A DNA stretch of 64,000 bases from a virus (taxonomy: Duplodnaviria; Caudoviricetes). Every line of letters starts with the position of its first letter. Position 1 is the first letter of the stretch. Location of the stretch: positions 1 to 64,000 of the IMG/VR virus record IMGVR_UViG_3300033121_001287; one strand, 5' to 3'. Positions 2,809-30,433 of this stretch are shown here, piece by piece. A program made the position numbers and the translations under genes. The notes beneath the pieces were generated by a model. It saw only the letters and a list, made by a program, of their open reading frames with translations. It made no database searches and was not told where the DNA came from.

Positions 2809-2859
2809 GGTCGGCCCGAATGCAAGGACCGGGCCGGGCAGCCGGGCTGTTTACAACGG

Positions 2860-2888: not shown

Positions 2889-2897
2889 GGAGGCGCG

Positions 2898-11488: not shown

Positions 11489-13606
11489 ATGGGCAACTGG
11501 CTGACGCGGCCTGATACGATCATCCTCGACCCGTCGAGTCCGCAGGCGAGGAGACTGCACCTGTGGGTGCCAGGGACGCCAGAAGTCGCTCCGTACGAGC
11601 AGATCTGGCGAACGAGGACAACCCGATTCAACACGACGGAGTCGATTCGACGAGTACCAAGCGCGGGCGGGTTCGGAATGTCGTGCGATGGCACGTCTGC
11701 GACGAACGACAAGCGTGTCGCGACGGTGCCCGCACTGACAACCGCCAATGTGACGCTTGTCACATGGGTGTTCCCCCGGTCTTCTGTGGCGGCGTACTCC
11801 GGATCGCTGTACGAGAACTCGATCGGATACGTCGGGATGTTTGCGTCCGGCGCAGCAGGAAACCCGCTGACGTATCAGTGGGCTGGAGTGACTGCCGAGT
11901 ACAACGGAGACACCGGCCTAACGATTCCCGTGGGCGAGTTGCAGATGTGGGCCGTCGTCATCACGCCAAGCGATGCGACGGTGTATCTCGGTGCGTCGAG
12001 TCTCGGTTTGAAGTCGTGGACACGCACAGCCGCGCATTCTGCTCGAACACTCGACACCGACTGGAAAATCGGACGGGCATCAACGGCAACGCCTGTCAAC
12101 GGCGAGGTCGTCGACGCGCGCATCTACACGCGATCCCTCTCGTCGGCTGAGATCCGAAGCCTCTACGACCCCACGACGCGATGGGGATTGTACCTCCCGC
12201 AGGGTCGTACACGCGTCTTTCTCGTCCGCCCGGCCGCCGACGCACCTCCCGCCGGTGATCAGTCAGTCACTCAGCCGACCATTGGTTCGGGATCGCAGCT
12301 GTTTGGCCCCACGGTTTCCACTGCAAGCACGCTCGCGCAGCCAAACATCGCTTCAACGCTGCAGCTTTTCTCTTCGACCATCGTTGCGCATGCAGCGCTG
12401 ACGCAGCCGACGCTCGCATCCGGTTCGCAGACGTTCGCTCCGTCGGTGATCGCGCATGCGGTCCTGACGCAGCCGCTTTTGTCATCGGCTACGCAGCTGT
12501 TTGCGCCTTCGGTAGCGGCAGCGGGCGTACTGACGCAACCGCACATTGCAAGTGGCGCTCAGACCTATGCGCCAACGGTGACTGCGGCCGGAGCCGTCAG
12601 TCAACCGCACATCAGTTCGACGCAGCAGCTCTTTGCGCCATCCGTAGCTGCAGCCGGTGCGCTGACGCAGCCGCATATCGCGTCTGCTCTGCAGACCTTC
12701 GCGTCCACGGTCGTTGCGGATACTACGCTGACGGCCCCGTTTTTGGCTTCTACGGCGCAGCAGTTCGCACCGTCCGTTACCGCGCATGGGGCTCTTACGC
12801 AGCCCGTGATCGCCACCAGCGCGCAAACGTTCGCGCCCACGGTGCTCGCGCACGCGTTGCTGACTCCTCCGGTCATTGCCACCGGCGCGCAGTTGTTTGC
12901 GCCTGCCGCATCGGCCGCAGGAGCGTTGACGCAGCCGTTCTTGTCAAGCACGGCGACGTTGTACGCTCCGACCGTGGCATCGGCCGGAACAATTACGCAG
13001 CCGACGATTGCAGCTACGTCGCAGTTGTACGCCCCGTCGGTGACGGCCGCCTCCGTCGTGACGCAGCCGGTGATTGCCACTGGTTTGCAGGTCTTTGCGC
13101 CTGCGGTAGCTGCGGAGCGCTCGATCAGCAGCCCGTTCATCGCGTCGGCGGTTCAGACATTCGCACCTTCGGTGGTGGCTGCGGGAGCATTGACGCAGCC
13201 GCTGCTTGCCAGCACCGCAGCGCTGTATCCTCCGGCCCTGTCCGCAGCAGGAACCTTGGTGCAGCCGTTCATTGCATCGACGGCCGCGTTGAATGCACCA
13301 ACGGTCACTGCGAGCTTTACGCTGACGCAGCCGTTGCTCGCGAGTGGCTTGGCGCTCTTTGCTCCAACCGTAGGACTGCCCACTCAGTACGCAAATCTTC
13401 CGCAGATTCCGAGTGGTTCCTCGCTGTTTGCACCATCAGTCATCGCGTCGGCGAATCTGAGTTGCCCGATGATCGGGAGTGGAAGTCAGGTATTCGCTCC
13501 GGGGCTGTTGTTCGCGCTTCCCGTATACCGGGATGTGGTGTATGTGCATCCGGTTTACGATGTGCTTTTCCATCAGTCACGCTATGACGTGCTCTTCGAG
13601 GAATAA
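11489..13606 (+). CDS. LamG-like domain plus 22-aa tandem-repeat fibre-like protein
   Basis: VDARIYTRSLSSAEI LamG end followed by about 19 LTQPxIASxxQxFAPSV repeats. Confidence 0.75.
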   Translation: MGNWLTRPDTIILDPSSPQARRLHLWVPGTPEVAPYEQIWRTRTTRFNTTESIRRVPSAGGFGMSCDGTSATNDKRVATVPALTTANVTLVTWVFPRSSVAAYSGSLYENSIGYVGMFASGAAGNPLTYQWAGVTAEYNGDTGLTIPVGELQMWAVVITPSDATVYLGASSLGLKSWTRTAAHSARTLDTDWKIGRASTATPVNGEVVDARIYTRSLSSAEIRSLYDPTTRWGLYLPQGRTRVFLVRPAADAPPAGDQSVTQPTIGSGSQLFGPTVSTASTLAQPNIASTLQLFSSTIVAHAALTQPTLASGSQTFAPSVIAHAVLTQPLLSSATQLFAPSVAAAGVLTQPHIASGAQTYAPTVTAAGAVSQPHISSTQQLFAPSVAAAGALTQPHIASALQTFASTVVADTTLTAPFLASTAQQFAPSVTAHGALTQPVIATSAQTFAPTVLAHALLTPPVIATGAQLFAPAASAAGALTQPFLSSTATLYAPTVASAGTITQPTIAATSQLYAPSVTAASVVTQPVIATGLQVFAPAVAAERSISSPFIASAVQTFAPSVVAAGALTQPLLASTAALYPPALSAAGTLVQPFIASTAALNAPTVTASFTLTQPLLASGLALFAPTVGLPTQYANLPQIPSGSSLFAPSVIASANLSCPMIGSGSQVFAPGLLFALPVYRDVVYVHPVYDVLFHQSRYDVLFEE
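12266..13522 (+). repeat. 66-bp (22-aa) coding tandem repeat: 17 regular plus 2 degenerate units
   Basis: Units aligned by hand from VTQPTIGSGSQLFGPTV to LSCPMIGSGSQVFAPG. Confidence 0.85.
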
Positions 13607-13609
13607 CTC

Positions 13610-13957
13610 ATGAGCGTTCTGTTTGAGGTCGTCGAAGGCTGGACCGGGGTGCTTGGTCCTTTCACTCTCCGAGTGAACGAAGTTCCACTTGACCTTACAA
13701 GCTATACTGTGGAATTAGTCCTCCGGAGCGGGGATGGCACCCTCATTAGCGTAGCTGGCCAAGTCACAAAGCTCAATCAAGTGGCGAATCCCGGCCAAGT
13801 GACATTTTCACCTGCGGCTGGTGATTTCGTGCATCAGACGGGACGCTACACCCGTAGCACTTCGTACCAGATGCATTGGAAAGCGACGGATGGATCCGGC
13901 AAGGTGGTCTTCTTCCCGAACGACGACTCACTTGAGGTGGTGGTGAATCGTGCCTAG
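13610..13957 (+). CDS. BppU N-terminal-like Ig-fold anchor protein
   Basis: PLDLTSYTVEL...GQVTF...D...GRY...TDGSGKVVFFP pattern. Confidence 0.55.
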   Translation: MSVLFEVVEGWTGVLGPFTLRVNEVPLDLTSYTVELVLRSGDGTLISVAGQVTKLNQVANPGQVTFSPAAGDFVHQTGRYTRSTSYQMHWKATDGSGKVVFFPNDDSLEVVVNRA

Positions 13958-15953
13958 TCTCGCCGTCGTACCCGGCGGCCGGATTGCCTTGCTGCTCCTT
14001 GCGGCACGTGAACGTGCGCTTGGCGGCAAGGGAAGTGGCAATTTCGGCCACAAAGGACGGCCCGGTGAGGTCGGTGGATCTGCTGCGGATAACGGTCTCC
14101 CGCAGGAGCGCGCGTCCGTCGTGCAGAAATTCAACATGCAGGCGATCCCGGCCGGTGCGATGCATCGGATCATGATCAACCCCGAAAATGGGAAGATGAT
14201 TCTTGGCCGCGTCTTTGAGGATCCCGGATCGAACGATGCGATGGACGAAACACACTCTGGTGTTTACTCAGACGCGACTGGGAAAGTGGAAGGATTTGAC
14301 GACTATTATCGTGGATACGTCATGGGTGCGCGACCTTCCACTCCATTCGGGTACATCGAGATATACGATCCTGCAACGTTTGAGGAGTCTTTGGAAGATC
14401 TGACTGAAGACGATAATGCTCGCGTCTTTGATGATCTTTCAAAGATTTTCACACATCTCGCTAAGAACGGTGGCTTGCATCCAAAGACTCGGTGGGCTGG
14501 TGCATTGGATGCGATGCTAGATCAGCCAGTTGAAGTCGGAGAGCAGTTTCCATTCGTCTTCCAGAAGAAGCGCGCGCTCGGCGGCCCTGGCTCAGGGAAC
14601 TTCAATCACAAGGGTCGTCCCGGTCAGGTCGGTGGTTCGTCGTCTGACGGTGGAAGCGCTCGCAACATTCCACTGCGCTATCGCGTGCGTGAGAAGGCCG
14701 CTGCGAAGCCGGCGCGTGCGAAGGAAGCCGCACCGAAGGCCACACTGAAGGCCGCACCGAAACCGAAGCAGCCTGAAACCATCACCGTCTACCACAATTC
14801 GCCCGACGTGTTCGAGGATAACAAGCCGAACTTCTCGGCGTATTTCGGTGATTCTGACTTCCTCAAGTCATTTCCAAACGAGTGGGGTGAGCACACCTAC
14901 GCGATTGACTTGCCCACCGAGAAGCTACTCGATCTTGACAAGGGTTCATCCGACGCGCGTGAGTTCATGACGATCATGGCCACGCTGGCTTATCCGAATG
15001 ATCCGGGGAACCCGGAGTTCATCGAGAAGCTCAAGGCCGGTGATCCTGAAGCGGTGGACGACTTCTACGAGGCGTGGACTGATAAGAGCTTTGTCACTCA
15101 CGCGCTCGAACTTATGCCGAAGTACGAAGCGGTGCGCTTCCGCAGTGAGTTCGTCGTACCGCACCAGACGCTCGCGAAGCTGCAGGGTCGCAAGTTCAAG
15201 GCGCTCGGCGGGCCGGGCAGTGGGAACTTCGGTCACGCAGGAAGGCCCGGTGAGGTTGGCGGCAGCGCTTCAGCCGATGTGAGTATCGAGTTTGTTTCAA
15301 GTGCTACAACGCCGATTGAAAAAACACTTGAACAACTCGATATGAGCGAGGAAAACGTCAAGAGCGCTATTACGTCAATGACCCGTAATTTTCCCGGTAA
15401 GTGGCTCATTGAGGTAACTCCGTTTGGGCGTAATGAACTCAGTATTGAAGGGACTGGAATCTTTCCCGAAGATGAGAGCGCTCCTTCTGGATCTTTCAGT
15501 CGAGTGTTTTCCATTGATGACGAAAACGAGCTTTTTGTAGTGCATTCCTCATTTAGCTTGCCTGAGTCAATGCAAAATCAAGGTCACGCAAAGCTCATGA
15601 TGCGTAATGCTCTTGAAACCTACGATAAAATGGGGGTTTCACAGATTGAGACGCATGCAGTTGACGTCGGTGCCTACGCGTGGGCACGAGCAGGATTCCT
15701 TCCGGAAAAGCCACAGGCTGTTGCACGTTCGATGCGCACACGGATTAACTTACTGACTGATGGTGGCGTGATTACCGAGTCTGACAGATCTCGTTTGCTA
15801 GTTGCCGCGGAGGGTTCACGCGCATTGTGGAGAATAGCTGACGATCCGCAGGGTCGATTGATACTCAGGGGACTAAGCTACGACGCGAAACTAAACTTGA
15901 AGGATTCTGCGGCTGTTCGCCGTGCGCGTCACTACGCAGGACTCGAATCATGA
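13950..15953 (+). CDS. Tagged effector polyprotein 1: unknown domain, ART-like domain, GNAT
   Basis: Tags at 14022, 14580, 15207; TVYHNS..AYFG..YAIDL; QNQGHAK..VGAYAWARAGF. Confidence 0.8.
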   Translation: MPSLAVVPGGRIALLLLAARERALGGKGSGNFGHKGRPGEVGGSAADNGLPQERASVVQKFNMQAIPAGAMHRIMINPENGKMILGRVFEDPGSNDAMDETHSGVYSDATGKVEGFDDYYRGYVMGARPSTPFGYIEIYDPATFEESLEDLTEDDNARVFDDLSKIFTHLAKNGGLHPKTRWAGALDAMLDQPVEVGEQFPFVFQKKRALGGPGSGNFNHKGRPGQVGGSSSDGGSARNIPLRYRVREKAAAKPARAKEAAPKATLKAAPKPKQPETITVYHNSPDVFEDNKPNFSAYFGDSDFLKSFPNEWGEHTYAIDLPTEKLLDLDKGSSDAREFMTIMATLAYPNDPGNPEFIEKLKAGDPEAVDDFYEAWTDKSFVTHALELMPKYEAVRFRSEFVVPHQTLAKLQGRKFKALGGPGSGNFGHAGRPGEVGGSASADVSIEFVSSATTPIEKTLEQLDMSEENVKSAITSMTRNFPGKWLIEVTPFGRNELSIEGTGIFPEDESAPSGSFSRVFSIDDENELFVVHSSFSLPESMQNQGHAKLMMRNALETYDKMGVSQIETHAVDVGAYAWARAGFLPEKPQAVARSMRTRINLLTDGGVITESDRSRLLVAAEGSRALWRIADDPQGRLILRGLSYDAKLNLKDSAAVRRARHYAGLES

Positions 15954-17998
15954 GTGACTGGCTGATTGAAGAACTGCTCGGCGACGACGACTACATTCCG
16001 CAACCGGATGAGTACGACGATGATCCGGAACCGAAGTCGCTTGGCGGGCCGGGCAGTGGGAACTTCGGTCACGCGGGTCGTCCCGGTGAGATTGGTGGAT
16101 CCGCACTGGCTGCGGAGGGCAACCGCATTTTCAAGACTCGTGACGATCTGAAGCTGAACAAGGGTTGGTACGGCGAGAAGGACTACTACACGTGGAAAGA
16201 CAAGCCCGGCATGATGGTGACCGGGCGCGTACTTGACAAGGCCGAACTTCCCGACACACTTTACCACGTCACGACGAACGCAACCGCCGTCGAATCATCC
16301 GGCTACCTGCGCGGACAGAACGCCGACGTGGGGCTTGGTGGCGGGCAGGAAGACGGTGTGTCGTTTACCACCGATCTGACCGACGCGAAGGTGATTCAGC
16401 GCGAGCTTCGTCGGGCCGTCGAAATCGCGCAGCAGAAGCACACCATCGAGAGTCTTGACCGCTTCGCGCGAGAAGACGAGCAAGAGGCCGGGATGGCAGA
16501 GGGCTCGCTGAACGACGCGGTGAACTACGCGCGCAGGAATTGGGATGTCAATATCACTTCCCCGGTGTACGACTCAGAGCAGAAGAAGGCCTCGCTGCTC
16601 GAAGACGTATTCAAGATGTACCTGCAGATTCGCGGCAACTCGAAGGATCCACTGCTGAAAAACCCGATGCTCTTCGGGCGGCAGGAGCATTTGCGGAATC
16701 TGGATCCGAACAACATCCGCACGCTGCACGTGCCGAAGAGTGGCATTCCGGATCGTGCGCTGGTGACTTCCGGCTCGGACGATTTCCTGCACGAGGTGCG
16801 CGTCTATTCCGACGTACCCGTCGCCGGGATGCGCGTGGCGGGCGGCCCCGGCAGCGGGAACTTCGGACACGCTGGCAGACCGGGGTCTCCGGACGAGTAC
16901 GACGATCTTGAGGTGCTTGGCGGGAAGGGGAGCGGTAACTTCGGTCACAAGGGTCGGCCCGGTCAGGTTGGTGGATCGGCCGGTTGGCAATCCGGCAGCT
17001 ACGATGCTCCGCGTGGACAGGAAGAGAACTGGCTCAATGACTCAGTTCGTAATCCACTGCTCCCATCGGATTTGAAACTTGAGGGAAGCGAGCAAGCTGA
17101 TAACAAGCTGATCAAGGAGTACCACTCGAAGACGCTTCCGGCAAAGGCCATCGCGCTATGGGACAAGGCTGTTACGACTGAGATTGGTCGCGGTAACAGC
17201 CCCACAAAGGTGGTGCCCGTTGACAAGATTCTCACTCGGCAAGCTACGCTTGCAACTCGCATCGTGGAGGGTTACAAGAGAGATCTTGAGTCAATGGGTC
17301 GTTTCATTATCGGTGGCGCGAACGACCCTGTAGGATCGGCGATCAAGTACGGAGATCAGTACCTGCTTATCGATGGTAATCACCGGATTAACGCGCTGAT
17401 GCGTACCGGATCGAAGCGGGTTGAGATTCGCATCGTCGCTGAGATCCCCAAGGCCCGCGATCTTGGCGGCCCCGGCAGTGGCAACTTTGGCCATGCCGGT
17501 CGCCCCGGTGAGATCGGTGGATCGGCCCCGGCCGAGATGCCCGCGCATGCGAAAGAGACGCTCGACGCGTGGATCGCCGATTCCGACTACGCGATCAACG
17601 CAGCCGCGCGCAGCAAGCAGGATTCAGCGCTCGTCAAGCGGATGGACGAAGTGATCGCAGCAAGCCCCGTCGTCGATGGCACGGTCTATCGCGGAGTGAG
17701 TTTGGATCCCGAAGATCCGAACCAGATTTACATCCTTGACAATCTCAGGAAGGGTTACTCCTTCGGTGAGAAGGGCTTCTCTTCAGTCACCTCGAACGAG
17801 AAGATCGCAACTGACTTCGCCACGGGCGGGAACACCGGCAACGTAGAGGTTGTGTTCGAGATGAAGGTCAGTGGCCGACGCGGTGCCGTCGTACCGAGTG
17901 GGCTGGACGAGACGGTGCTCGAACGCGGAGTTACCTACAAGATTGACAAAGTGGTTCGCAACGGGTCGAGAGTCAAGGTGACCGGGAGAATCTTCTAG
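15950..17998 (+). CDS. Tagged effector polyprotein 2: ART-like, empty module, ParB/Srx-like, R-S-E ADP-ribosyltransferase
   Basis: LYHVTT..VSFTTD..HEVRV; YLLIDGNHRINAL; VYRG..GFSSVT..LDETVL. Confidence 0.8.
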   Translation: MSDWLIEELLGDDDYIPQPDEYDDDPEPKSLGGPGSGNFGHAGRPGEIGGSALAAEGNRIFKTRDDLKLNKGWYGEKDYYTWKDKPGMMVTGRVLDKAELPDTLYHVTTNATAVESSGYLRGQNADVGLGGGQEDGVSFTTDLTDAKVIQRELRRAVEIAQQKHTIESLDRFAREDEQEAGMAEGSLNDAVNYARRNWDVNITSPVYDSEQKKASLLEDVFKMYLQIRGNSKDPLLKNPMLFGRQEHLRNLDPNNIRTLHVPKSGIPDRALVTSGSDDFLHEVRVYSDVPVAGMRVAGGPGSGNFGHAGRPGSPDEYDDLEVLGGKGSGNFGHKGRPGQVGGSAGWQSGSYDAPRGQEENWLNDSVRNPLLPSDLKLEGSEQADNKLIKEYHSKTLPAKAIALWDKAVTTEIGRGNSPTKVVPVDKILTRQATLATRIVEGYKRDLESMGRFIIGGANDPVGSAIKYGDQYLLIDGNHRINALMRTGSKRVEIRIVAEIPKARDLGGPGSGNFGHAGRPGEIGGSAPAEMPAHAKETLDAWIADSDYAINAAARSKQDSALVKRMDEVIAASPVVDGTVYRGVSLDPEDPNQIYILDNLRKGYSFGEKGFSSVTSNEKIATDFATGGNTGNVEVVFEMKVSGRRGAVVPSGLDETVLERGVTYKIDKVVRNGSRVKVTGRIF

Positions 17999-20900
17999 TG
18001 AATCCTCAACGCTTGACTTGGACGGGGAGCGAGCTTGCCGCGATTATGCTCGATAGCGATCTGCGGCTCGCTGGTGGTCCCGGTTCCGGCAACTTCGGAC
18101 ACGCCGGAAGGCCCGGTGAAGTCGGTGGATCCGCATCCGGTGGATCTACGACATTTCACGGCACATCGCAGAAGAAGCTTGACTCCATTCTGAAGGAAGG
18201 ACTGCGCGCGTCCTATAGTGGAGTGATTTGGCCGAATCAAAGCAAGCCCGGTCATGTCTACATGTCCACGAACATGGAAGAGGCGCAAGCATGGGCAATT
18301 CAGACCGTTGATCGTGAGTTCATGTTTCGGAAGCGCGGCCCCGATGGCACTTACTCATTTGACAAGGGGCAGCCGGTTGTTCTCGAAGTGACAATCCCTG
18401 AAGACGTGCAGGACCGCGTCACGAACGATGAGCACTTCCCCACCGAAGGTGAGTACGCGGTGCGGGAGTCGAACAATCGGCAGTTTCAGGGCGATATCAA
18501 GCCTGAATGGATCACCGGCATTTGGAAGGGTGAAGTGAAAGGCGACGACGCGAAGTGGATTCGTACGCTTTCCGCTCGCACCTTCTACATTCCGTTTGTC
18601 ATCCCCGTCGATGAGCCGGTCACGCTCGGCGGCAAGGGCAGCGGGAACTTCGGTCACAAGGGTCGGCCCGGTGAGGTAGGTGGCTCGTCGTCCGACGGTG
18701 CTACCGGTTCCTTCAAGCGTAGCACAGTACCCGTCGATATGATGGCTCCCATCGGTGACATCAAGGCTGATAGTTACGCTTCAGGCTTCGTTCAACTTTA
18801 CCATGTAACTGATATCGATGCGGCTCAAAGCATCAGTAAGAACGGTTTTGATCGTCACGCGAAGAATCAGTTTCAGGGATTTGAGAGCGCACGAAAAGCT
18901 GTGTATGGATGGTCAAGTCGTGATCGCGCTCGGCTAGAGGTTCAACGCGCCGAAGAAATGAGTCCGGGTTCCGCGAAGGACTTTGCCATTGTGCAATTTC
19001 AGGTACCGAAGGCAGAGTGGAATAAACTTCATGCGGACGAGGACGCTGGCCCGGTGGATTGGAAGCAATCCTACGAAGAGATGAGCGCAGCCTTTGAAGG
19101 CGACGTCCCTCCGCGATGGATCAACGCTGTGTTCGTCGATCACGAGGCGTTCAAAGCACTCGGTGGTAAGGGCAGCGGCAACTTCGGTCACAAGGGTCGT
19201 CCCGGTGAAGTTGGTGGATCAGCCGATGATGGCGTTTCCGAACCGAAGCTATCGCCGAAAGCTCAGCGCGAACAGGAAAAGCTGAAGCAGCAGGAGCTTG
19301 CTGACAAGCAGACGAATCCACTCGCGCATCCACCGGTGATTCTTGGCCGTCCACCGCTGTTCGGCATCGAGGACTACGTTGCTGCCTACGGCGAGGAATT
19401 CACTCCCGCGCCGCTGCCTGAAGACGTTGAACGCGGCCCGATGGGTCAGTGCTATCGCAATGCTACGCTTCTCGTACTGAGTCGCCCTGATCTCGATCTG
19501 GACTTTGCGGAGGGCTTCGCGCAGAGCGCTGGTACGGGTGATTTGTCATTTATGCACGCGTGGGCGGTCACGAAGGATGGCAAGGTACTGGATCCCACTT
19601 GGGACAAACCCGAAGGTGGTAAGTACTTCGGAGTGAGATACGACCGACGCGCTTACTTGAAGGGCATCGAGAAACGGAAATACTACGGAGTGATCGGTGC
19701 TTCGGACAAGAACGCGCAAAAGGTGATTGACACTGGCGGGGCAAAGATGCGAAGTAAGGCTCGCGACCTTGGCGGCCCCGGCTCGGGGAATTTCGGGCAC
19801 GCCGGTCGACCGGGCCAAGTAGGTGGATCATCTTCGGACGGTGACTTTGCGCGATTCGAATCGCAGGTGCTCGGAGTGCTGCAAACGCAGTCACGCACCG
19901 TCGGTCAGTTTAAGGATTCAGGACCAGTCACTGAGAAGCCAGCGCTTGCCGTCGAAGGAAAGGCCGTTGGAGATCTTGCGGATCGGAACGCGCGCAAAGC
20001 GTTGCGAATGGTGTTTGACAAGAAGTCACTCGCAAGCCCCACGGACGCCGAAGACTTTATCACTCAAGTCAATAAGCAACTGACTGAGGGGATGCTGCAA
20101 CCGGGTCAAAGTCAACTCCGCACGTGGGAGACTCCGCACAAGCAAACGCCGCCCGATCAGATCGAGCAAGGCCTGAAGGATTTCGGCGAGGAATTCTACA
20201 ACCGCATGCAGCAAAACGATCCAGTAGCCACGGCTGCTTGGGTCGAGCACCAATTGGATTCACGCCTGCATCCGTTCGCAGACGCGGTGGGGCGTACGAC
20301 GAAGATCATCAGCAACTGGGTCTTGGACCGGGCCGGTCTCCCGTCGCCGACGTACCCATCCAGAGGCGAGTACTACTCGCAGATTGAGAAACCGCTCGCG
20401 TCGTGGACGGACTACTACCGTTCGATGCTTGCACCGAAGACCGCAGAGGATGCAGACATGGCCGAACTGACAGTGCTTGGGCGTACGGGCGACGTCACCT
20501 ACCTCGATGCTGATCTGAATGTCACCACGCTCGAAGACGCCGTGTGGGCTCGCGTCGAGTATCCCGATGGTGAGATTCTCACTCTGCGGTCCTTGGGCGG
20601 TCCCGGCAGCGGAAACTTCGGGCACAAGGGACGTCCCGGTGAGGTTGGTGGATCCGCATCGTCCGACGAGATCAACACAAAGCCCGCAAGCACGCCGGGA
20701 GATCTCACCAAGGGAAAGAACGAAACCCCTGAAATCGCGGCGATTCTCGCCAGACCGTCTTCGGCGTACCCCAAGGCTCGCAGCGGCCCGACGATGATGG
20801 CTGTGGATCACAGCAACGATCCTGATGCAGCGCATGATAGGCCGCGTGGGCTCGATACGCTGCAGGAACACACGCTGCCTGACGGATCAATCACTCCCGA

Positions 20901-21630
20901 ACGCCGTGAACTGCACGAAGCCATCGTCGAGAAGATGCTCTACGGTCACAAACCCCCGTCGGATGCCCCGGTCGCGCATCTGATGGGCGGCGGCGGCGCG
21001 AGTGGTAAAAGCGTTATGCAGTCGCAGTTGAGCTTGCCGGAAGATCAGGTTCACATCGACGTCGACATCATTCGTACTCATCTTCCGGAGTGGGACGAAG
21101 AACTCGCTCGCGCGAAGGCTGAAAATCGGAAGGCTGACAACTATCTCGGCAACTACACTCACGAAGAAGCGAGCGTGATTTCCAAGATGGTGATCGACCG
21201 GGCCTCGCGCGAGGGCATGAACCTGATGGTGGATGGCGCGGGTGACACCAGCGTTGACAAGGTCGCGCAGAACGTTGCTCGTTACAAGGTGGGCGGCCAG
21301 AAGGTGATCGCCGACTACGTCACCGTTGACTACGACCTCGCGTATCAGCGCATGCGTGACCGTGGTGACCGCACCGGACGTTACATTCCGGCTGCTCACC
21401 TACGCGCAGTGCATGCAGAGGTCGCACGCGTCTTCCCGGCGGCCGTATCGCGCGGATTGTTCGACGAATTCACGCTGTGGGACACTTCCGCCTCGACGCC
21501 GGGCGTGAACGCGAAGCCCGCGAAGATTGCTTCTGGTCGTGGATCCGACATCACGATTCACGATCAGGAAGCATGGAAGAAGTTCCTCGAACGAGGCAAG
21601 GGCATCGCACCGCGTGCGGGCGAAATCTAA
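17998..21630 (+). CDS. Tagged effector polyprotein 3: two Tpt1-like ART domains, papain-like, Fic, zeta-toxin-like kinase
   Basis: FHGT..ILKEGL..VYMST..IKPEWI; LYHVT..VYGWS..VPPRWI; GQCYRNA..HAW..DPTW; HPFADAVGRTTK; GGGASGKS..THEEAS..RTGRYIP. Confidence 0.8.
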   Translation: MNPQRLTWTGSELAAIMLDSDLRLAGGPGSGNFGHAGRPGEVGGSASGGSTTFHGTSQKKLDSILKEGLRASYSGVIWPNQSKPGHVYMSTNMEEAQAWAIQTVDREFMFRKRGPDGTYSFDKGQPVVLEVTIPEDVQDRVTNDEHFPTEGEYAVRESNNRQFQGDIKPEWITGIWKGEVKGDDAKWIRTLSARTFYIPFVIPVDEPVTLGGKGSGNFGHKGRPGEVGGSSSDGATGSFKRSTVPVDMMAPIGDIKADSYASGFVQLYHVTDIDAAQSISKNGFDRHAKNQFQGFESARKAVYGWSSRDRARLEVQRAEEMSPGSAKDFAIVQFQVPKAEWNKLHADEDAGPVDWKQSYEEMSAAFEGDVPPRWINAVFVDHEAFKALGGKGSGNFGHKGRPGEVGGSADDGVSEPKLSPKAQREQEKLKQQELADKQTNPLAHPPVILGRPPLFGIEDYVAAYGEEFTPAPLPEDVERGPMGQCYRNATLLVLSRPDLDLDFAEGFAQSAGTGDLSFMHAWAVTKDGKVLDPTWDKPEGGKYFGVRYDRRAYLKGIEKRKYYGVIGASDKNAQKVIDTGGAKMRSKARDLGGPGSGNFGHAGRPGQVGGSSSDGDFARFESQVLGVLQTQSRTVGQFKDSGPVTEKPALAVEGKAVGDLADRNARKALRMVFDKKSLASPTDAEDFITQVNKQLTEGMLQPGQSQLRTWETPHKQTPPDQIEQGLKDFGEEFYNRMQQNDPVATAAWVEHQLDSRLHPFADAVGRTTKIISNWVLDRAGLPSPTYPSRGEYYSQIEKPLASWTDYYRSMLAPKTAEDADMAELTVLGRTGDVTYLDADLNVTTLEDAVWARVEYPDGEILTLRSLGGPGSGNFGHKGRPGEVGGSASSDEINTKPASTPGDLTKGKNETPEIAAILARPSSAYPKARSGPTMMAVDHSNDPDAAHDRPRGLDTLQEHTLPDGSITPERRELHEAIVEKMLYGHKPPSDAPVAHLMGGGGASGKSVMQSQLSLPEDQVHIDVDIIRTHLPEWDEELARAKAENRKADNYLGNYTHEEASVISKMVIDRASREGMNLMVDGAGDTSVDKVAQNVARYKVGGQKVIADYVTVDYDLAYQRMRDRGDRTGRYIPAAHLRAVHAEVARVFPAAVSRGLFDEFTLWDTSASTPGVNAKPAKIASGRGSDITIHDQEAWKKFLERGKGIAPRAGEI

Positions 21631-21641
21631 CCGAGAGGTGA

Positions 21642-21818
21642 ATGACAATGGTGAGTGGTGAAGCAGCATCGCGGATTCTCCTTGAGGTGATGTCCGGAGT
21701 TCTCGTGTCCACAAAGGACTCGCCGGAGGAAGCTGAGTACCGCAAGCAAGTCAAGGTCGAGGTTGATGAGATTCACGCCAAAGGCGGCACCGTGCAGTTG
21801 CCGAGGGAATGGCTGTGA
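21642..21818 (+). CDS. 58-aa protein not in the ORF track (candidate antitoxin)
   Basis: GAGGTG RBS; MTMVSGEAASR...LPREWL; stop overlaps the GTG at 21815 of the next ORF. Confidence 0.6.
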   Translation: MTMVSGEAASRILLEVMSGVLVSTKDSPEEAEYRKQVKVEVDEIHAKGGTVQLPREWL

Positions 21819-22399
21819 CACCGGAAGAACTTGTATCTGCTCCGGGTGATCCTATCGACGATGCTACCCGCGCGTTGATCGCGCAGATGCTCGACGAAGA
21901 CGAGCAGCTACGAGCAGCCTACAGCCCTGATCAGGCTCGCGGAAGCGATGGTAAGTGGACGAAGGGCGGCGGCAGCGCCCCGTCGTCTGACTCCCACAAG
22001 TCGGCCCGCATCGCACGCGCGAAATCCACGCATATTCCTTCGACGCGATCCTCGCAGAAGGCCGCTGCACGAAGTGAGAAGGTCGTCGCAAACGCTTTGC
22101 AAGGGAAGAGCACTGACGATCATGAGCCAATGGACGTCGTGGTTAACGAGAACGGTCGCGTTATCGGCGTGGAAGTGAAATCAATTCTCGCCGGGAAGAA
22201 CGACAAGATTACCATGCACCCCGATTCACTCGCGCGTAAGGTGGAGTGGGTTAAGGCGCACAAGGCTACCGGGCATACCATCGCGATTGATCTGCGCGGT
22301 GGGCAGCGCACGTTCTACTATCGAAAGGGCTTCGGCTCGTTTCGATTGTCATCCATGCAACGCGTCTCCGTCAAAGAGCTTCGCGAGTTGGTGCGATGA
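21809..22399 (+). CDS. PD-(D/E)XK-like nuclease with YSPDQARGSDGKW leader
   Basis: E...PMD-x9-EVK restriction-fold signature; LRAA precedes YSPDQ. Confidence 0.65.
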   Translation: MAVTPEELVSAPGDPIDDATRALIAQMLDEDEQLRAAYSPDQARGSDGKWTKGGGSAPSSDSHKSARIARAKSTHIPSTRSSQKAAARSEKVVANALQGKSTDDHEPMDVVVNENGRVIGVEVKSILAGKNDKITMHPDSLARKVEWVKAHKATGHTIAIDLRGGQRTFYYRKGFGSFRLSSMQRVSVKELRELVR

Positions 22400-24423
22400 G
22401 CTATTACCTGTTCGACTCACGGGGTTATGTCAGCGACGGCCCGTCGATTCAGGGATGGGAAGACTTCGTTGACTGGATCGCGTCCGAAACTGACATGGAT
22501 GCGGTGGATCAGTTCATCAAAGATGGCTCCGTTGAGGCGCTCGATGAGTTCATCGGTGAACTGGGCACCGTTAACGCACCGGGATCAGTTGAACGCACGC
22601 GCAGAATAGTGTTGGCCGCTGCGCGCAGGGCTCAGGACATCCTGATCCTGTCAAACGGTTTCGAGCACGGCGACCTGCGGGCGGCCGGAGGGGCTGGCAG
22701 CGGGAACTTCGGGCATGCGGGCAGGCCCGGTCAGGTGGGAGGATCGGCACCGGACGTCGCAGCTGAATCGTTCAACGCGGACTTGAGTCAGTTCGGCTTT
22801 GTCAATCCGATGAACGAGCGTGAGTTCGTGATCAACAACGAGGCCGCCGTCGAATTGAGCCGCACGTCGAACGGTATTCGTCTGCACGCGATTCGGTCAT
22901 TTGCTCCGAAGAGTGGTGCCGGTACTCGTGCGATGCAAGTGGTGATGAACGTCGCAGACAAGCACGGGTTTACCATTACTGGAACCGCGAAGCCTTTTGA
23001 CACCGGTCAGAAGGGAACGCTCAAGTCTGCACCGCTCAAGCAGTGGTACAAGAAGCTCGGATTTGAAGTGGATAGCCGTGGTGACATGGTTCGGCGGCCA
23101 CTTCGTACAGCCGGTGGTGCAGGGAGCGGGAACTTCGGGCATGCGGGAAGGCCGGGTCAGGTAGGTGGATCCTCGCCGGATGGCCGTGAAGCCATGACTC
23201 CGAAGGAATTACGACAGCAAGCTATTGTGGCGCTCGTTTACAACGAGCTTGCTGCACCGGCGTACCATTCGAAGCAAGACTTCAGTAGAATGAGTCCGGA
23301 AGATCGCGTGAAGCTTCTGGATGTTTCTGGAAAGTTGATTGACAAAGAGCACATGCCTGTTCAGATCCGAACGGATCGGAACAACTACGATAAGAACGGC
23401 GTCGGCGCTTACGCTTATTCCGCGTTCAAGCGTGAATCTGAAGAGAAGAATTGGACTCCGCAGCAAGCCTTTGATGAGGGATTGAAGAGAGGATTGTTCG
23501 TCGTTGCGGAAGGTTCGATTAATGGATACGAACCGATGTCGTCTATCGGTGCTTCCGTATCCCGATTCAATATTCTCGAAGGCATGAACGCTGACGAACG
23601 GGACAGATTCGAAGAAGCTTACATTCGCACGTTTGCCGATGGAAAGAACCGCAAGGAGCCTATCGACTCTCTTGAGTACCTTATCAAAGGCGGCTGGACT
23701 ACAAATGAACTAGAGCGCTTTGCGGATCGCGTGCAGATGGCAGGTGGTAGTAGTTCAAAGCCATACGATGAACGCTCGAACATCGATTCCTTTGCTCGAA
23801 CATTGGCGTTTTACTCAAAGGATTACGATGAGTTTCGTGCGCAGATGTTCAGTGGTTGGGCCTCTGCGAGTAACACGGCCGTCGCGCTCACCACGCGTGG
23901 TGTTGCTGCAGAAGCATTTCCATTGAAGGCTGGTAAATTCTACGAGGCGCATCTTGAAGATTCGTCTTACGGATGGACCTTCAATGGTTACGATCCGCGT
24001 GTATCTTTTTCGCCGCGCGCCGTCGAGAACATGCGCCGTTTGAAGTCTGAAACGGAAGCCTTCTACAAAAAGCAATTGAAGACGGACGATCTGACTACGA
24101 AGCCCCTTGTAGCCATGAGGGCCATTGGTGGTAAGATCGAAGCTTACACGCCCGCGTCTGTTGAATCGTGGACGACGGATGCTCGCACGGTGGATCGATT
24201 CGGGAAGATGATGGGAAAGAACATTAAGCGTGATGGTTGGGGAAGCGATACGATTTACACCAGCCTTCAGACTGAAGTAACTTTTGACGATGTACTCTGG
24301 AGTTATAAGAGCGCCAAGGGTCAGCGCGGTTGGCCTGAGGAGAAGCAGCTCAAAGGGAAGAAGGAATTCGTATTGCTCGGTTCACGAGTGAAAAAGGTCG
24401 AGGCCAAGCATGTCTACCTTTGA
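22396..24423 (+). CDS. Tagged effector polyprotein 4: acidic N-domain, GNAT, large domain ending in an ART-like fold
   Basis: KSGAGTRAMQ..WYKKLGF; AMRAIG..VESWTTD..KEFVLLG. Confidence 0.75.
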   Translation: MSYYLFDSRGYVSDGPSIQGWEDFVDWIASETDMDAVDQFIKDGSVEALDEFIGELGTVNAPGSVERTRRIVLAAARRAQDILILSNGFEHGDLRAAGGAGSGNFGHAGRPGQVGGSAPDVAAESFNADLSQFGFVNPMNEREFVINNEAAVELSRTSNGIRLHAIRSFAPKSGAGTRAMQVVMNVADKHGFTITGTAKPFDTGQKGTLKSAPLKQWYKKLGFEVDSRGDMVRRPLRTAGGAGSGNFGHAGRPGQVGGSSPDGREAMTPKELRQQAIVALVYNELAAPAYHSKQDFSRMSPEDRVKLLDVSGKLIDKEHMPVQIRTDRNNYDKNGVGAYAYSAFKRESEEKNWTPQQAFDEGLKRGLFVVAEGSINGYEPMSSIGASVSRFNILEGMNADERDRFEEAYIRTFADGKNRKEPIDSLEYLIKGGWTTNELERFADRVQMAGGSSSKPYDERSNIDSFARTLAFYSKDYDEFRAQMFSGWASASNTAVALTTRGVAAEAFPLKAGKFYEAHLEDSSYGWTFNGYDPRVSFSPRAVENMRRLKSETEAFYKKQLKTDDLTTKPLVAMRAIGGKIEAYTPASVESWTTDARTVDRFGKMMGKNIKRDGWGSDTIYTSLQTEVTFDDVLWSYKSAKGQRGWPEEKQLKGKKEFVLLGSRVKKVEAKHVYL

Positions 24424-25348
24424 GTTGCCCATCATCGTTGACGATCAGGAAGCACTTGACAAGCTACGCGCGGAAGGCAAGCTCGCGTGGGCTGGAGATG
24501 ACGATGCGACCGTCATGCGCTCACTCGGCCGCCGACTCCCTCCGAACGAAGTGCATGCTGCGGCCGACGCGCACGAGGCCAAGATGGTGGTGGCCCTGAA
24601 CTACGCCTTCGCTGCTGCCCGCAAATCGATTGACAAAGTTGCTCTCTTGAGCGCCTTGAAACTTGACTCTCGCCCGGCCAAGCGGCGGGCCTTGATCGCG
24701 GCCCTTCGGCCGGTCCCGGCCGCCTTAGAGGCGGCATTGGGCCGCACCGTGCCGCCCGTGTTGGAGCGTTGTTACGGGGCGGGCGGGGCGGCGGGGGTCA
24801 CGAGGCTCGGGGCACAGGCGCGAACGTTGGCGGCTATAGATGACGACGCGCTGCGTACCCTCCGTCGCGAATCGGCACCGGTGTTCGAGATGCAATTCGA
24901 CGCCAAAAGCGCAGCAGCGATCAAGTGGGCGCGCAAGCATAGTGGCGAACTCGTACGGCAGATTACCAAGACGACTCGCAAGCGCATTGCGCAGGCCGTC
25001 GTACGCGCGTTGGATGGCGGAAGCCCGCGTGAACTCTACAAGGACATCTTGCAAGTGATCGGCGATAAGGAGCGAGCCGATCTCATTGCAAGGACCGAAC
25101 TGATGGACGCAGCGAATTCCGGTCAGCGTGAGGCGTGGGCTCAGGCTGTCGAGGAAGGCTTGCTCACTGGATTGGAAATGCGAGAGTGGATCGCAACGGA
25201 TGATCCTTCATTGTGCGATCACTGTGATCGTCTCGATGGGAAGCTCGCAGAGCTTGACGGTGATTACCCCGACGGCGGCGGCATCGGCCCACCACTGCAT
25301 CCGCGTTGCCGATGCAGTGAAGGCATCTCAGCGCGGAGGCGCTCATGA
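24410..25348 (+). CDS. MuF/SPP1 gp7-family minor head protein
   Basis: RADLIARTE..EWIAT..CDHCDRLDG..PPLHPRCRC. Confidence 0.9.
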   Translation: MSTFELPIIVDDQEALDKLRAEGKLAWAGDDDATVMRSLGRRLPPNEVHAAADAHEAKMVVALNYAFAAARKSIDKVALLSALKLDSRPAKRRALIAALRPVPAALEAALGRTVPPVLERCYGAGGAAGVTRLGAQARTLAAIDDDALRTLRRESAPVFEMQFDAKSAAAIKWARKHSGELVRQITKTTRKRIAQAVVRALDGGSPRELYKDILQVIGDKERADLIARTELMDAANSGQREAWAQAVEEGLLTGLEMREWIATDDPSLCDHCDRLDGKLAELDGDYPDGGGIGPPLHPRCRCSEGISARRRS

Positions 25349-25530
25349 GTGAATCGACCCCCCGGAAGCCAGCAACGGCGGTAATCTCTGCCCGTATGCC
25401 TGCGGAGTTAGTGGATCGGGTCTACCAGACCGCGCGAAGTAAGAAGCAGACCGCATCCGAGTTCGTGCATGAAGCAGTCATGCGGGCGATGTCTAGCAAA
25501 GATGTCAAGGACGGCGGAAACCGGGTGTAA
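25345..25530 (+). CDS. Ribbon-helix-helix (CopG/Arc-like) DNA-binding protein
   Basis: VISARMPAELVDRV..SEFVHEAV beta-alpha-alpha pattern. Confidence 0.7.
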   Translation: MSESTPRKPATAVISARMPAELVDRVYQTARSKKQTASEFVHEAVMRAMSSKDVKDGGNRV

Positions 25531-25549
25531 ACAGCCCGGCCTGTTTACA
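25526..25549. promoter_or_regulatory. Inverted repeat, putative operator
   Basis: TGTAAACAG-cccggc-CTGTTTACA; 25526-25540 is the exact reverse complement of 2841-2855. Confidence 0.55.
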
Positions 25550-25639
25550 GCCGAGATTTCCGCTTGATTCCGGTGCATGCTAAGAGCGTCGAGGAGGTCC
25601 GCCCGGCCAGACCGGGCGGCTTTCCGTTGCTCAAGGCAC

Positions 25640-27307
25640 ATGGCTGATCCCACTGCTCGCCTCCTGCATCTGTACGGTGCAACCGGACGTGCTCGAACAG
25701 AAATGTTCGAAGGACGCGAGCATCTTGTGGTCCCCGTTATCGCGCTCATGGAGGGTGTGATCCATGCGGTAAACGCAGAGAATCCAGAGTACGTGCCCGC
25801 ACGCGCATTAGGGGTCGCCCCTCAATCGTGGAACGGGCGACCCCTGATGCTTGGACACCCCTCGCGTAACGGGGTGCAGATCAGCGCCAACGACGCTCGC
25901 GTGCTTGAGTCGCAGTCATTCGGTCGCGTGTTCAATACTCGCTTTGACGGCCGCCGACTCCTCATGGACGCCTACATCGATCCTGCCAAGACTGAGCAGA
26001 TCGGTGGTAGTGAGATGCTTCGCAGACTTCGTAACAATGAACTCTGCGAGGTGAGCGTCGGAGCCTTTGTCACGACCGACCCACAACCGGGTGAGTACAA
26101 CGGCAAAAAGTATAAGGCCGTTTGGAACAGCATCTCGCCTGACCACTTGGCATTTCTTCCGCAGGGTCGCGGAGCATGCAGCGCCGAAATGGGCTGCGGT
26201 GCGAACCGCGCAGCGGCTGCGTTTATCACTGCCGAAGGTTACCGAGAGGTGACTGAGGAAGAGTTGAAGACGATGGCTGAAGCTCGTGCCGAAGAAGATG
26301 CCGAACTCATCACATGGCAATCGATGCGTGATCACTGCGACATCCTTGATCGGATTCGCGTTCGCATTCGACAGCTTGTGGACGAGTTGATCAGCGCCGA
26401 AGGCACCCACGTTGAAGGCCTCGATGAATCGGACGAGACCGTCGTCGAGCGTGCAAGGCTTGAAGCCATCGGGCAACTGGCTTATTCGGCGCAGTCAGTG
26501 GTGTCTGGAATCAGCTCGCTGTGCATCAAGTCCTTGAGTCCTCATGGTGAAAGCGTACCGTCTCCCGCGTACAACGCCATGCTGGCTGAGTTCGTGAAGG
26601 ACGTGCCGATTGTCACTCTTGCCGAGAACGGGGTGAAGCTATGGGAAGCGGTTGCAAACGAAAGCGTTAAGGCGCTCAGCCTGAACAAGCCCGAACAGGA
26701 AGTCGAGAACAAGCAGGTGACTGCGGCAGGTGATGCACCGGCAGCAGCAGACAAGGTCGCGGGATCTGCCTGCGGCTGCAAAGGAGACAAGAACATGACG
26801 AAGGAACAGCGTGCGGAGATGATCGCAACGCTCATCGCCTGCAAGCACAGCGGGTTCACCGAAGGCGATCAGGCGATGCTCGACAACGCGACCGACGACC
26901 GTCTCGAAGCCTTCAAGGTGGCGAGCGAAGCGCGGATGCGGACGGAGACTGACCTCAAGGCAGCGGCGGCCAAGCCCCTGACCGAAGAGGAGTTCATGGC
27001 GAATGCGCCGGAGAGCCTGCGTTCGCTCATCGCGCGCCAGCAGCGGCAGGAGACGGCGTTCAAGGCCGAACTCGTCGCCGAGTTGAAGGCCGCGCAGGAA
27101 GAGTACTCGGAGACCGAACTCTCCGCGATGCCCATCGAGCAGCTGCAGCGCATGGCGCGCGTGGCCCGCATCGAGGTGCAGCCGGACTTCTCGGGTCGCG
27201 GACTGCCGCGCGTCCTCTCGTCGAAGAAGGAAGACGACGTCTACGCCAACCCGCCGGATCCGTACGCCGCCGACATCGAGCGCCGCCGGGCGGCTCAGGG
27301 CCGATAA
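25640..27307 (+). CDS. DUF2213-like head protein (putative prohead protease/scaffold)
   Basis: WNGRPLMLGHP, EVSVG, PDHLAFLPQGRGAC; charged helical C-terminal half; lies between MuF and capsid genes. Confidence 0.75.
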   Translation: MADPTARLLHLYGATGRARTEMFEGREHLVVPVIALMEGVIHAVNAENPEYVPARALGVAPQSWNGRPLMLGHPSRNGVQISANDARVLESQSFGRVFNTRFDGRRLLMDAYIDPAKTEQIGGSEMLRRLRNNELCEVSVGAFVTTDPQPGEYNGKKYKAVWNSISPDHLAFLPQGRGACSAEMGCGANRAAAAFITAEGYREVTEEELKTMAEARAEEDAELITWQSMRDHCDILDRIRVRIRQLVDELISAEGTHVEGLDESDETVVERARLEAIGQLAYSAQSVVSGISSLCIKSLSPHGESVPSPAYNAMLAEFVKDVPIVTLAENGVKLWEAVANESVKALSLNKPEQEVENKQVTAAGDAPAAADKVAGSACGCKGDKNMTKEQRAEMIATLIACKHSGFTEGDQAMLDNATDDRLEAFKVASEARMRTETDLKAAAAKPLTEEEFMANAPESLRSLIARQQRQETAFKAELVAELKAAQEEYSETELSAMPIEQLQRMARVARIEVQPDFSGRGLPRVLSSKKEDDVYANPPDPYAADIERRRAAQGR

Positions 27308-27352
27308 ACAGACGGCCCACATCGCCGTCCCGAAGGAGAGGAGTGAGAGGCA

Positions 27353-27793
27353 ATGGCAATCACACAGAAGGATCCGAACACGATCTGGCTCGGCGGCCCA
27401 CGCACGGAGATCAACGATCTCGCAGCGTCGGAAGTCATCAAGCCGGGCCATCTGCTCGTGCGGTTCAATAACAACGGCGTCATCCGACTGAAGAAGCACG
27501 CCACGGCTGGCGGCGCTGCAGTCAAGATCGTCGCGACCGAACAGAGCATGCTCAACAAGGGCGTGGATGACACCTACGCCGCGAACGACCTCGTCGAGGC
27601 ATCGGAGTTCGGTCCCGGCGCGTCGGCGTGGATGTTCATCAACTCGGGCCAGAACATCTCGGCCGGAGGTCTGCTCGAATCGGCCGGTGACGGCACGCTC
27701 CGCACGCTCGCCTCGGGTGTGGCGCTCTTCGCCGCGCTCGAAAACAAGAACGCCACCGTCTCGCCGACGCGCATCCGCGTCGAGGCCGTCTAA
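27353..27793 (+). CDS. Capsid decoration/cement protein
   Basis: Position before the major capsid gene; GQNISAGGLLESAGDGTL motif; strong codon bias. Confidence 0.7.
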   Translation: MAITQKDPNTIWLGGPRTEINDLAASEVIKPGHLLVRFNNNGVIRLKKHATAGGAAVKIVATEQSMLNKGVDDTYAANDLVEASEFGPGASAWMFINSGQNISAGGLLESAGDGTLRTLASGVALFAALENKNATVSPTRIRVEAV

Positions 27794-27829
27794 CCTAGAC
27801 GCCTCGGCGTCATCAGGAGGATCCGCACC

Positions 27830-30050: not shown

Positions 30051-30433
30051 TGGGTCTCCTCGACGTTGTGCGATCCGGGGTGAAGATTGCGGATGCCCTG
30101 ACGAAGTCTCTGCAGGCTTCAGTCACCTACCGTCGTTGTATTTCGACGAACCAGTACGGCGTCAAGCAGCTCGGTTCGCCTGTGACACTACTGGCACTCG
30201 TTGAGAACAAGCAGCGTAAGGTGATGTCACCGACCGGCGTGATCGTAGACTCAAACATTACCATCACGCTGCTGAACGTAGCCGCCGTCGTAGCTGCTAC
30301 CGGTGGTTTTGGGATTCGCGTCAATGACGAGATCGTACTTGCCGACGGATCCACCAACCCGGTACTGAACGTCGGTGGCTTTGTAGACGCTGGAACGAAT
30401 CAGCCGTTCGCGACGGAGGTGTACCTTGGGTAA
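30050..30433 (+). CDS. Head closure/neck protein
   Basis: TAATG overlap; size and position. Confidence 0.6.
   Translation: MGLLDVVRSGVKIADALTKSLQASVTYRRCISTNQYGVKQLGSPVTLLALVENKQRKVMSPTGVIVDSNITITLLNVAAVVAATGGFGIRVNDEIVLADGSTNPVLNVGGFVDAGTNQPFATEVYLG

Follow-up and report, generated by a model that had tools for sequence, protein, structure and literature searches.

A tag-delimited array of putative head-internal cargo polyproteins in the late operon of a tailed phage

Effectors packaged in the phage head are the first phage proteins to meet host defences, and how they are loaded, processed and released is unclear outside T4 and a few giant phages. Among the closest described systems are the polyvalent proteins of phages and conjugative elements (Iyer, Burroughs, Anand, de Souza and Aravind 2017, PMC5512222; NAD/ADP-ribose (ADPr) follow-up, PMC9503650), which join ADP-ribosyltransferase (ART), ParB-like, GNAT, 2H and NUDIX enzymes in one polypeptide encoded beside terminase, portal and MuF genes; fusions to the portal, MuF and the capsid-processing protease have been described, and packaging, injection and release by peptidases predicted (PMC5512222). 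Here we analyse an array of five open reading frames (ORFs) at 13,950–24,423 in the first 64,000 nucleotides (64 kb, hereafter the window) of IMG/VR virus record IMGVR_UViG_3300033121_001287 (Duplodnaviria; Caudoviricetes), which totals 84,524 bases and is rated 100% complete. Four of these ORFs are punctuated by copies of the same glycine-rich peptide of about 20 residues (tag A). The reading we favour, to which we give roughly an even chance, is that they encode head-internal cargo polyproteins, and that the prohead protease of the phage itself cuts these before each tag to yield individual tagged enzymes.

The array resembles polyvalent proteins in carrying unrelated effectors within one ORF (zeta and Fic in ORF3; ART-fold, ParB/Srx-like and ART modules in ORF2) and in lying near the genes for the small and large terminase subunits (TerS, TerL) and portal (2820–7346) and those for MuF, protease and capsid (24,410–28,876). 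The polyvalent papers define domains rather than junctions, and mention neither a glycine-rich tag nor a cleavage-site grammar (PMC5512222, PMC9503650); whereas they propose embedded zincin or assemblin peptidases, the evidence here points to an ordinary prohead protease at its standard cassette. In T4, internal proteins and Alt carry an N-terminal targeting peptide of 10–20 residues that is removed by gp21 (PMC7411985, PMC9026906), the giant phages phiKZ and SPN3US follow the same processing logic (PMC5694885), and the cargo of such phages, which is ejected with the DNA, includes an ADP-ribosyltransferase (PMC7411985, PMC9026906, PMC5694885). The leaders of 24, 31, 25 and 37 residues in the window are likewise short N-terminal propeptides ahead of what would be the mature protein. 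T4 cargo, however, consists of single proteins for which no conserved mature-end peptide has been reported, whereas here many modules follow one leader, and each mature module would keep a conserved 20-residue header common to phages with different proteases.

The MuF polymorphic toxins of temperate phages, in which a head protein domain precedes variable toxin domains, provide a further comparison, and the paper describing them has none of the junction or cleavage terms looked for in it (Jamet et al. 2017, PMC5576092). Some relatives of the array are similarly MuF–tag–effector fusions; in the window, unlike in the MuF toxins, the PF04233 domain sits in a separate ORF (24,410–25,348) and only the N-terminal domain of long MuF proteins heads ORF5. 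Polymorphic toxins more generally have pre-toxin junction motifs (VENN, PT-HINT), which share with the tag a short conserved element at the boundary before a variable toxin module and module exchange at that point, and PT-HINT domains lie directly ahead of a few tags. The tag differs from these motifs in its sequence, in its setting (a phage head rather than a secretion system) and in occurring in many copies per protein instead of one.

Tag A reads GGxGSGNF[GN]HxGRPG(xVGGS). An earlier note on this DNA had counted 14 copies in four ORFs, which a six-frame regular-expression scan and the translations bear out, all 14 lying on the + strand: three in ORF1 (13,950–15,953), four in ORF2 (15,950–17,998), five in ORF3 (17,998–21,630) and two in ORF5 (22,396–24,423). 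A pattern search of the whole 84,524-base record found no tag A outside the array (13 exact matches, the 14th copy having N for G). Stops and starts overlap at ORF1/2, ORF2/3, ORF4/5 and ORF5/MuF. It was also correctly noted that 13 of the 14 tags precede a distinct module (122–416 residues), the remaining tag being truncated, and the modules are mutually unrelated by BLASTP. Since synonymous positions vary freely among the 14 copies in a codon comparison, the peptide and not the DNA appears to be under selection. In an AlphaFold2 (AF2) model, the domain between two tags has a predicted local distance difference test score (pLDDT) above 90, while both flanking tags score 35–41 and are without secondary structure (about 38–41 for copy 10 and about 35–39 for copy 11); the tags are thus predicted to be disordered.

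The first polyprotein, ORF1, begins with a 24-residue leader that resembles the PLxPxxxARLLL..R.L leaders of other phages and continues with three tag-headed modules of 166, 189 and 228 residues, the tags being preceded by R-A-L (copy 1, 14,022–14,081), R-A-L (copy 2, the NFNH variant, 14,580–14,639) and K-A-L (copy 3, 15,207–15,266). In ORF2 a 31-residue acidic leader precedes copies 4 (16,043–16,102, after K-S-L), 5 (16,841–16,885, truncated to 15 residues), 6 (16,919–16,978, after E-V-L) and 7 (17,465–17,524, after R-D-L). Between the truncated tag and the next full one lies an 11-residue remnant, SPDEYDDLEVL (16,886–16,918), and because this resembles the end of the ORF2 leader (QPDEYDDDPEPKSL), the segment at 16,841–16,918 appears to be the fossil of a fusion between two once separate leader–tag genes. 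ORF3 has a 25-residue leader and five modules, headed by copies 8 (18,073–18,132, after L-R-L-A), 9 (18,628–18,687, after V-T-L), 10 (19,162–19,221, after K-A-L), 11 (19,771–19,830, after R-D-L) and 12 (20,596–20,655, after L-R-S-L). ORF5 consists of a 97-residue N-terminal domain, a tag (copy 13, 22,687–22,746, after L-R-A-A), a 122-residue module, a second tag (copy 14, 23,113–23,172, after L-R-T-A) and a 416-residue module.

The residue immediately before the first glycine of the tag (position −1) is nearly fixed within a phage and differs between phages, falling into the classes K, D, N, E, H/Q and L/A, the last with R or K at −3. Across 17 phages with at least three tags each (83 tags), entropy at −1 was 2.42 bits overall and fell to 0.23 bits when computed within phages (z = 17.9 relative to shuffled labels), which makes it by far the most phage-specific variable position of the motif. 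These classes were compared with the prohead protease families in the same records. Of 50 records, five had an S78 (HK97-type) protease, and each of these belonged to class K; a strong canonical DUF2213 match (E < 1e-32) was present in 13 of 14 class D records. Divergent DUF2213 proteases occurred in class L/A (7 of 11 records) and class H/Q (4 of 5), and in 0 of 20 records of class K, N or E. Among 21 records a single S77 (T4-type) protease was found, in the class E phage L114, whose sites FFE, ILE, LFE and LFE follow a hydrophobic-x-E pattern; Peptidase_S78_2 was seen in one record only. The HK97 capsid protein is cut at K103/S104 (PMC10275583), and the T4, phiKZ and SPN3US proteases cut after Glu, as in T4 Alt at ITE-6 and LTE-619 (PMC5694885); judged from the aligned sites, classes K and E appear to fit this enzymology. 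In class K capsid proteins the junction of delta domain and mature protein has the sequence ..ITK|AAGDG or ..IKK|AAGTS.

The window itself belongs to class L/A, with L or A at −1 of all 14 tags and [RK]-x-[LA] ahead of 12 of them. Its protease (25,577–27,307, + strand) is a divergent DUF2213 protein with a scaffold-like C-terminal part (PF09979, 3.6e-9; PHROGs head maturation protease), and in an alignment of this DUF2213-type protease, His, Ser and His are invariant across 13 homologues. The capsid protein carries LRAL and LRSL within residues 21–38, conserved in relatives, and these are candidate maturation sites. Head proteins contain LRx[LA] at about four times the density of the window's other proteins, and the motif lies at domain boundaries of the portal, the protease–scaffold protein and ORF4, while in two relatives (L016 and L002) a tag stands exactly at the protease/scaffold boundary. 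In sum, the −1 residue behaves like the P1 residue of each phage's own prohead protease, as far as sequence comparison can tell, and because it changes in step with protease type, the module strings are probably cut inside the head. This supports, as the most likely outcome, the proposal of the earlier note that the proteins are cut into separately tagged effectors.

Counts over 160 tag proteins revealed a consistent grammar around the tag. The stretch before the first tag is shorter than 60 residues in 63% of them, with a peak at 20–30 residues, whereas behind the last tag 96% have 100 residues or more and none has fewer than 20; the tag belongs with the downstream domain and never ends a protein. 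Large parts ahead of the first tag (n = 95) include Phage_portal_3 (26), Phage_portal (3), MuF (5), DUF2213 (5) and S78 (4), and NUDIX fused to portal is also found there. Downstream parts comprise ARTs, zeta, DRAT, GNAT, NUDIX, topoisomerase IB, Ntox50, PBECR3 and CdiA_C, and never portal. The commonest single-tag architecture, in class D phages and Clostridia prophages, is portal, NUDIX, tag and toxin (Ntox50 or zeta) in one ORF of 600–1860 residues (loci L006, L009, L045, L053, L130, L134, L146 and L159). Short N-terminal leaders form conserved families common to several phages, and to judge from this conservation the leaders of 20–30 residues look like the real address. The 97-residue N-terminal domain of ORF5 corresponds to the N-terminus of long MuF proteins in relatives (L094 and L026). 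Modules swap between arrays at tag boundaries: protein P0135 contains the ORF3 modules reordered, and P0127 mixes modules of ORF1 and ORF2.

These patterns suggest the following model. The ORFs at 13,950–24,423 would encode head-internal cargo polyproteins of the polyvalent protein kind, in which each module is preceded by a two-part cassette: a prohead protease site ([RK]-x-[LA], with the cut before Gly-Gly) and then a disordered header tag that is alike across very different phages (here type A 14 times and a second type, C, once). The whole polyprotein would enter the procapsid via its N-terminal part, either a leader of 24–37 residues that recalls the capsid targeting sequence of T4 or, in ORF5, the MuF-derived domain. 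The DUF2213-type protease would then cut ahead of every tag, freeing about 14 enzymes (ART-fold, Fic, zeta kinase, ParB/Srx-like, Cys-His-Asp and others), each starting with the tag; when the virion next infects a cell, they should exit the head together with the DNA. Cleavage, virion presence and ejection of the array proteins are inferred, packaging and delivery from genomic context. As for the tag, it is more likely either part of the processing cassette or active after cleavage, when it may serve in ejection, shield the newly exposed N-terminus or bind some conserved partner.

A grammar of this form (anchor or leader, protease site, conserved header, enzyme) is testable, and would let cargo be read straight from thousands of uncultured phage genomes. 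It would also predict the specificity of uncharacterised prohead proteases, such as Asp for canonical DUF2213, and explain how one address brings more than 12 enzymes into a capsid. Were the header a functional signal, it would offer a ready handle for loading chosen proteins into laboratory phages.

Two sibling tags occupy the position of tag A, in the same arrays and even in the same proteins (loci L098, L091, L068, L031, L062 and L096; proteins P0008–P0011, P0018 and P0156). Tag B reads GD[VL][EP]GH[PE]F[RHY]GNQ[WY]T (GDVEGHPFRGNQWT-like), with 11 copies in L098, and tag C reads [FWY]D[EP]xx[HQ]PRDExG[RK][FW]T, with a variant NPYHD..GRF. In the window, ORF4 (21,809–22,399, + strand) encodes cargo protein 4, consisting of a 37-residue leader ending in L-R-A-A, a type-C tag (YSPDQARGSDGKWT, 21,920–21,961, + strand, equal in length to FDPDQPRDETGRWT of relatives) and one module, which in other phages is headed by tag A or tag B. 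More generally, one module type may be headed by A, B or C depending on the phage. Tags B and C follow the same lineage-specific preceding residue; within loci the −1 classes of tags A and B agree in 21 of 21 comparisons, which is not significant against a chance expectation of 17.4. The cultured Xanthomonas phage Rb1 (L170, PQ569993.1, 51,801–55,466) has one tag B in a 1221-residue gene product annotated as 'internal head protein', whose gene adjoins DarA-like, M12B peptidase and giant helicase genes, and this phage is a possible entry point for experiments; for tag A, a prophage of Oscillibacter sp. PC13 (L131) is a candidate.

A degenerate DNA pattern of tag A recovered at least 114 stretches of viral contigs and 41 stretches in one-genome-per-species prokaryote assemblies, the latter assigned to Clostridia, Chloroflexi, Proteobacteria, Bacteroidetes, Acidobacteria, Actinobacteria, the Candidate Phyla Radiation (CPR), Elusimicrobia and some archaeal metagenome-assembled genomes (MAGs). 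Because MAG binning can misassign viral contigs, a host range covering bacteria and some archaea is provisional. In a profile search of the type the earlier note had suggested, with 100 tags as its basis, representatives of 5585 protein clusters matched at E up to 1e-3, of 898 at 1e-10 and of 154 at 1e-30, so the tag is widespread, with up to 9–10 copies per protein. The suggested tie to head operons also held, with MuF in 24 of 30 tag-bearing records and portal, MuF and protease domains upstream of tags; MuF is absent from two tag-bearing records rated 98–100% complete. Scans of tag-bearing proteins gave no Pfam, NCBIfam or PHROGs match over the tag. A tblastn search of tag A against 50,697 phage records returned 0 matches, a result in which the low-complexity filter probably masks the peptide. 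None of the motif strings of tags A, B and C occurred in a text search of about 8.4 million papers and preprints, and neither that search nor the key papers yielded a functional description, as the earlier note had supposed; the tag is apparently undescribed.

The identities of the modules were only partly as first proposed. The zeta-toxin kinase (20,656–21,627, Pfam 1.6e-18) and the Fic module (19,831–20,595, Pfam 1.7e-5) are firm and some ART labels are supported, whereas the full set of six ART-like modules and the two GNATs were not recovered by any search. The ART module at 17,525–17,995 matches Pfam at 8e-4, and a homologue matches ADPrib_exo_Tox at 5e-11. AlphaFold modelling, also proposed in the earlier note, was moderately informative for the module at 16,103–16,840, whose AF2 model (pLDDT 90.4, with a helical insert) has as best structural matches Tpt1/KptA (Z 7.3, root-mean-square deviation 2.4 Å over 87 residues), Scabin, Arr, pertussis S1 and LT, which moderately supports a predicted ART fold. 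A Tpt1/PARP match (E about 0.08) weakly suggests a Tpt1/PARP-like ART at 18,133–18,627, the module after it in ORF3 is unassigned, and the ParB/Srx-like label at 16,979–17,464 is weak, with SbnI and SerK matches only at E 0.1–0.9. In the module at 19,222–19,770 a Cys is nearly invariant and a His and an Asp are invariant among homologues; modelling gave only weak fold matches (Z up to 4.1), all in the transglutaminase/papain superfamily and led by the N-terminal glutamine amidase NTAQ1, protein glutaminases and the deamidase OspI, so that this predicted fold may represent a deamidase effector rather than a protease. Foldseek against the PDB found no significant match for 16,103–16,840 or 19,222–19,770, PDB sequence searches with three other modules gave nothing usable, and protein atlas searches returned unnamed clusters or nothing.

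Several points weigh against cleavage by the prohead protease. The case is drawn from sequences and predicted structures; two of the 14 window sites (E-V-L and V-T-L) have no R or K at −3; a class N protease was searched for and none identified; and in class H/Q phages no matching site was seen in the capsid N-terminus. Because phages within a class are related, common ancestry could explain part of the association of −1 class with protease, and the comparison covers few independent events (a single S77 phage, and one S78 lineage with perhaps two or three sublineages). A protease site also leaves unexplained why the next 20 residues are nearly invariant across phages with different proteases. 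Descent alone would account for the −1 residue if the polyvalent polypeptides stayed whole, as uncleaved beads on a string with the tags as flexible linkers. Such linkers would suit the glycine-rich composition and predicted disorder of the tags and the fact that −1 class and protease family are both inherited traits, and some polyvalent proteins are described as packaged or transferred uncleaved (PMC5512222). We nevertheless hold this rather unlikely: a passive linker needs no invariant N, F, H, R and P across phages of many phyla, nor a −1 residue held fixed within a phage while its neighbours drift, and the −1 residues match the specificity of both characterised proteases. Near-invariance across phages argues instead for a conserved partner, and the tag might be an address: it would either bind something conserved in the virion (portal, MuF, scaffold or the inside of the capsid) or feed modules into the portal/tail channel. 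The frequency of MuF in tag-bearing records favours this, as does the interchangeable use of three unrelated-looking tags ahead of the same module types, which is how signals would behave, and an address is compatible with cleavage since the tag stays on the mature N-terminus. The tags, however, are also found behind domains of the portal, MuF and protease, which are head residents in any case and need no address, for which reason we do not favour the view of the earlier note that the tag is itself a packaging signal; proteins without such anchors carry separate conserved leaders. Capsid, portal and protease families moreover vary so widely among tag phages that a shared protein partner is hard to name, and MuF is missing from the two near-complete records mentioned above. 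We consider an address unlikely. A broader version, equally doubtful in our view, is that tags A, B and C are near-universal cargo headers, exposed N-terminally and recognised by the portal/tail conduit or the exiting genome, which would make their carriers ejectable; if true, it would amount to a general protein-delivery code across bacterial and archaeal viruses, usable to load and inject foreign proteins.

Other explanations place the cut, or the function, within the array itself. Asparagine autocleavage is known from the NPTH loop of FlhB/YscU and from Asn-Phe or Asn-Ala cuts in tetravirus and nodavirus capsids, and the invariant Asn of tag A might similarly cyclise and cut its own bond (N|F..H). 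Asn and His are indeed invariant with N-x-x-H spacing, a sibling tag reads NP[Y]HD..GRF, and a chemistry of its own would explain why the tag is independent of protease family. Known cases, though, depend on strain in a loop of a folded domain, and AF2 predicts disorder for the tag; N-x-x-H is missing from tag B and from most tags of type C (HPRDExGR[FW]), and the phage-specific −1 residue would go unexplained, which leaves self-cleavage very unlikely. For the same reason the tag (N-F-G-H, pLDDT 35–41) is not an NPTH loop of the FlhB/YscU type, where N-P-T-H sits in a strained loop of a folded domain. Cutting by a peptidase borne on the array, the Cys-His-Asp module at 19,222–19,770, is hardly credible: the conserved residues and the papain/transglutaminase fold matches point that way, and the module is often first after the leader, but its best matches are amidases and deamidases (NTAQ1, protein glutaminase, OspI), not peptidases. 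As a universal tag peptidase the module was rejected on its distribution: homologues occur in 5 of 50 tag-bearing records, and a set of 12 near-complete ones contained none. We give equally little credence to tags that serve mainly as recombination joints for module shuffling, a role comparable to that of pre-toxin motifs in polymorphic toxins. Different phages do carry reshuffled modules with breakpoints at the tags (as in P0135 and P0127), and the fossil junction of ORF2 lies inside a tag; however, the scrambled synonymous sites leave no long identical DNA tracts, conservation is at the peptide level, and a standard junction more plausibly permits shuffling as a by-product than exists for that purpose. 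An AT-hook is a GRP core with basic flanks (R-G-R-P-K/R), and DNA binding of this kind was set aside because the core x-G-R-P-G-[EQK] of the tag is flanked by Gly and mostly Glu or Gln, not by basic residues, and because tags B and C, which can take its place, have neutral to acidic sequences. Encapsulin cargo-loading peptides are short, glycine-rich and C-terminal on the cargo and bind an HK97-fold shell; the tag is never C-terminal, with 0 of 160 proteins having fewer than 20 residues after the last tag. A collagen-like triple helix is a long run of G-X-Y triplets, of which tag A has only five in frame (GNF GHA GRP GEV GGS), and tags B and C have no such periodicity.

The left part of the window is a late operon on the + strand, opening with TerS and TerL (2820–4764, + strand) and the portal gene (4752–7346, + strand). 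The earlier note had placed the array directly upstream of the MuF, DUF2213 and capsid genes, an arrangement confirmed by PF04233, DUF2213 and HK97-fold matches. The gene for the MuF/SPP1 gp7-type minor head protein (24,410–25,348, + strand; PF04233 4e-12, TIGR01641 8.9e-12) has a start that overlaps the stop of ORF5, and the protease gene is followed by one for a 146-residue protein, which separates it from the gene for the major capsid protein (27,830–28,876, + strand; HK97 fold, DUF6260 type).

The portal (Phage_portal_3; PF06381 5.8e-28, PF13563 4.2e-12, PF23474 5.5e-6) has a C-terminal extension made up of a Pro-rich and acidic linker, a degenerate type-A tag (GGPGSGVVGHMTPGQ, 6345–6389, + strand, preceded by R-W-L) and a 2H phosphoesterase/Acb1-like domain. 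The last, at the end of the portal (6849–7112, residues about 700–786) behind the decayed tag, is related in type to anti-CBASS (cyclic-oligonucleotide-based antiphage signalling system) enzymes, and an LRAA lies past it at portal residue 825. Given this predicted domain on the portal C-terminus, up to twelve copies of a cyclic-nucleotide-degrading enzyme could be present at the portal vertex. The region between portal and array contains small ORFs and, at 9299–13,606, the genes for two large proteins (729 and 705 residues) with Laminin_G_3, a concanavalin-like lectin domain. This is an odd location for lectin-like proteins, which may be capsid decoration or fibres. Further along, the structural gene block contains a DegT-type aminotransferase and a hexapeptide acyltransferase, followed by more unannotated ORFs (30,426–34,852). 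A 1607-residue protein encoded at 36,935–41,758 has an endolysin-like region (residues about 1010–1163); it probably belongs to the tail, perhaps as the tape measure, and includes a domain for cell-wall hydrolysis.

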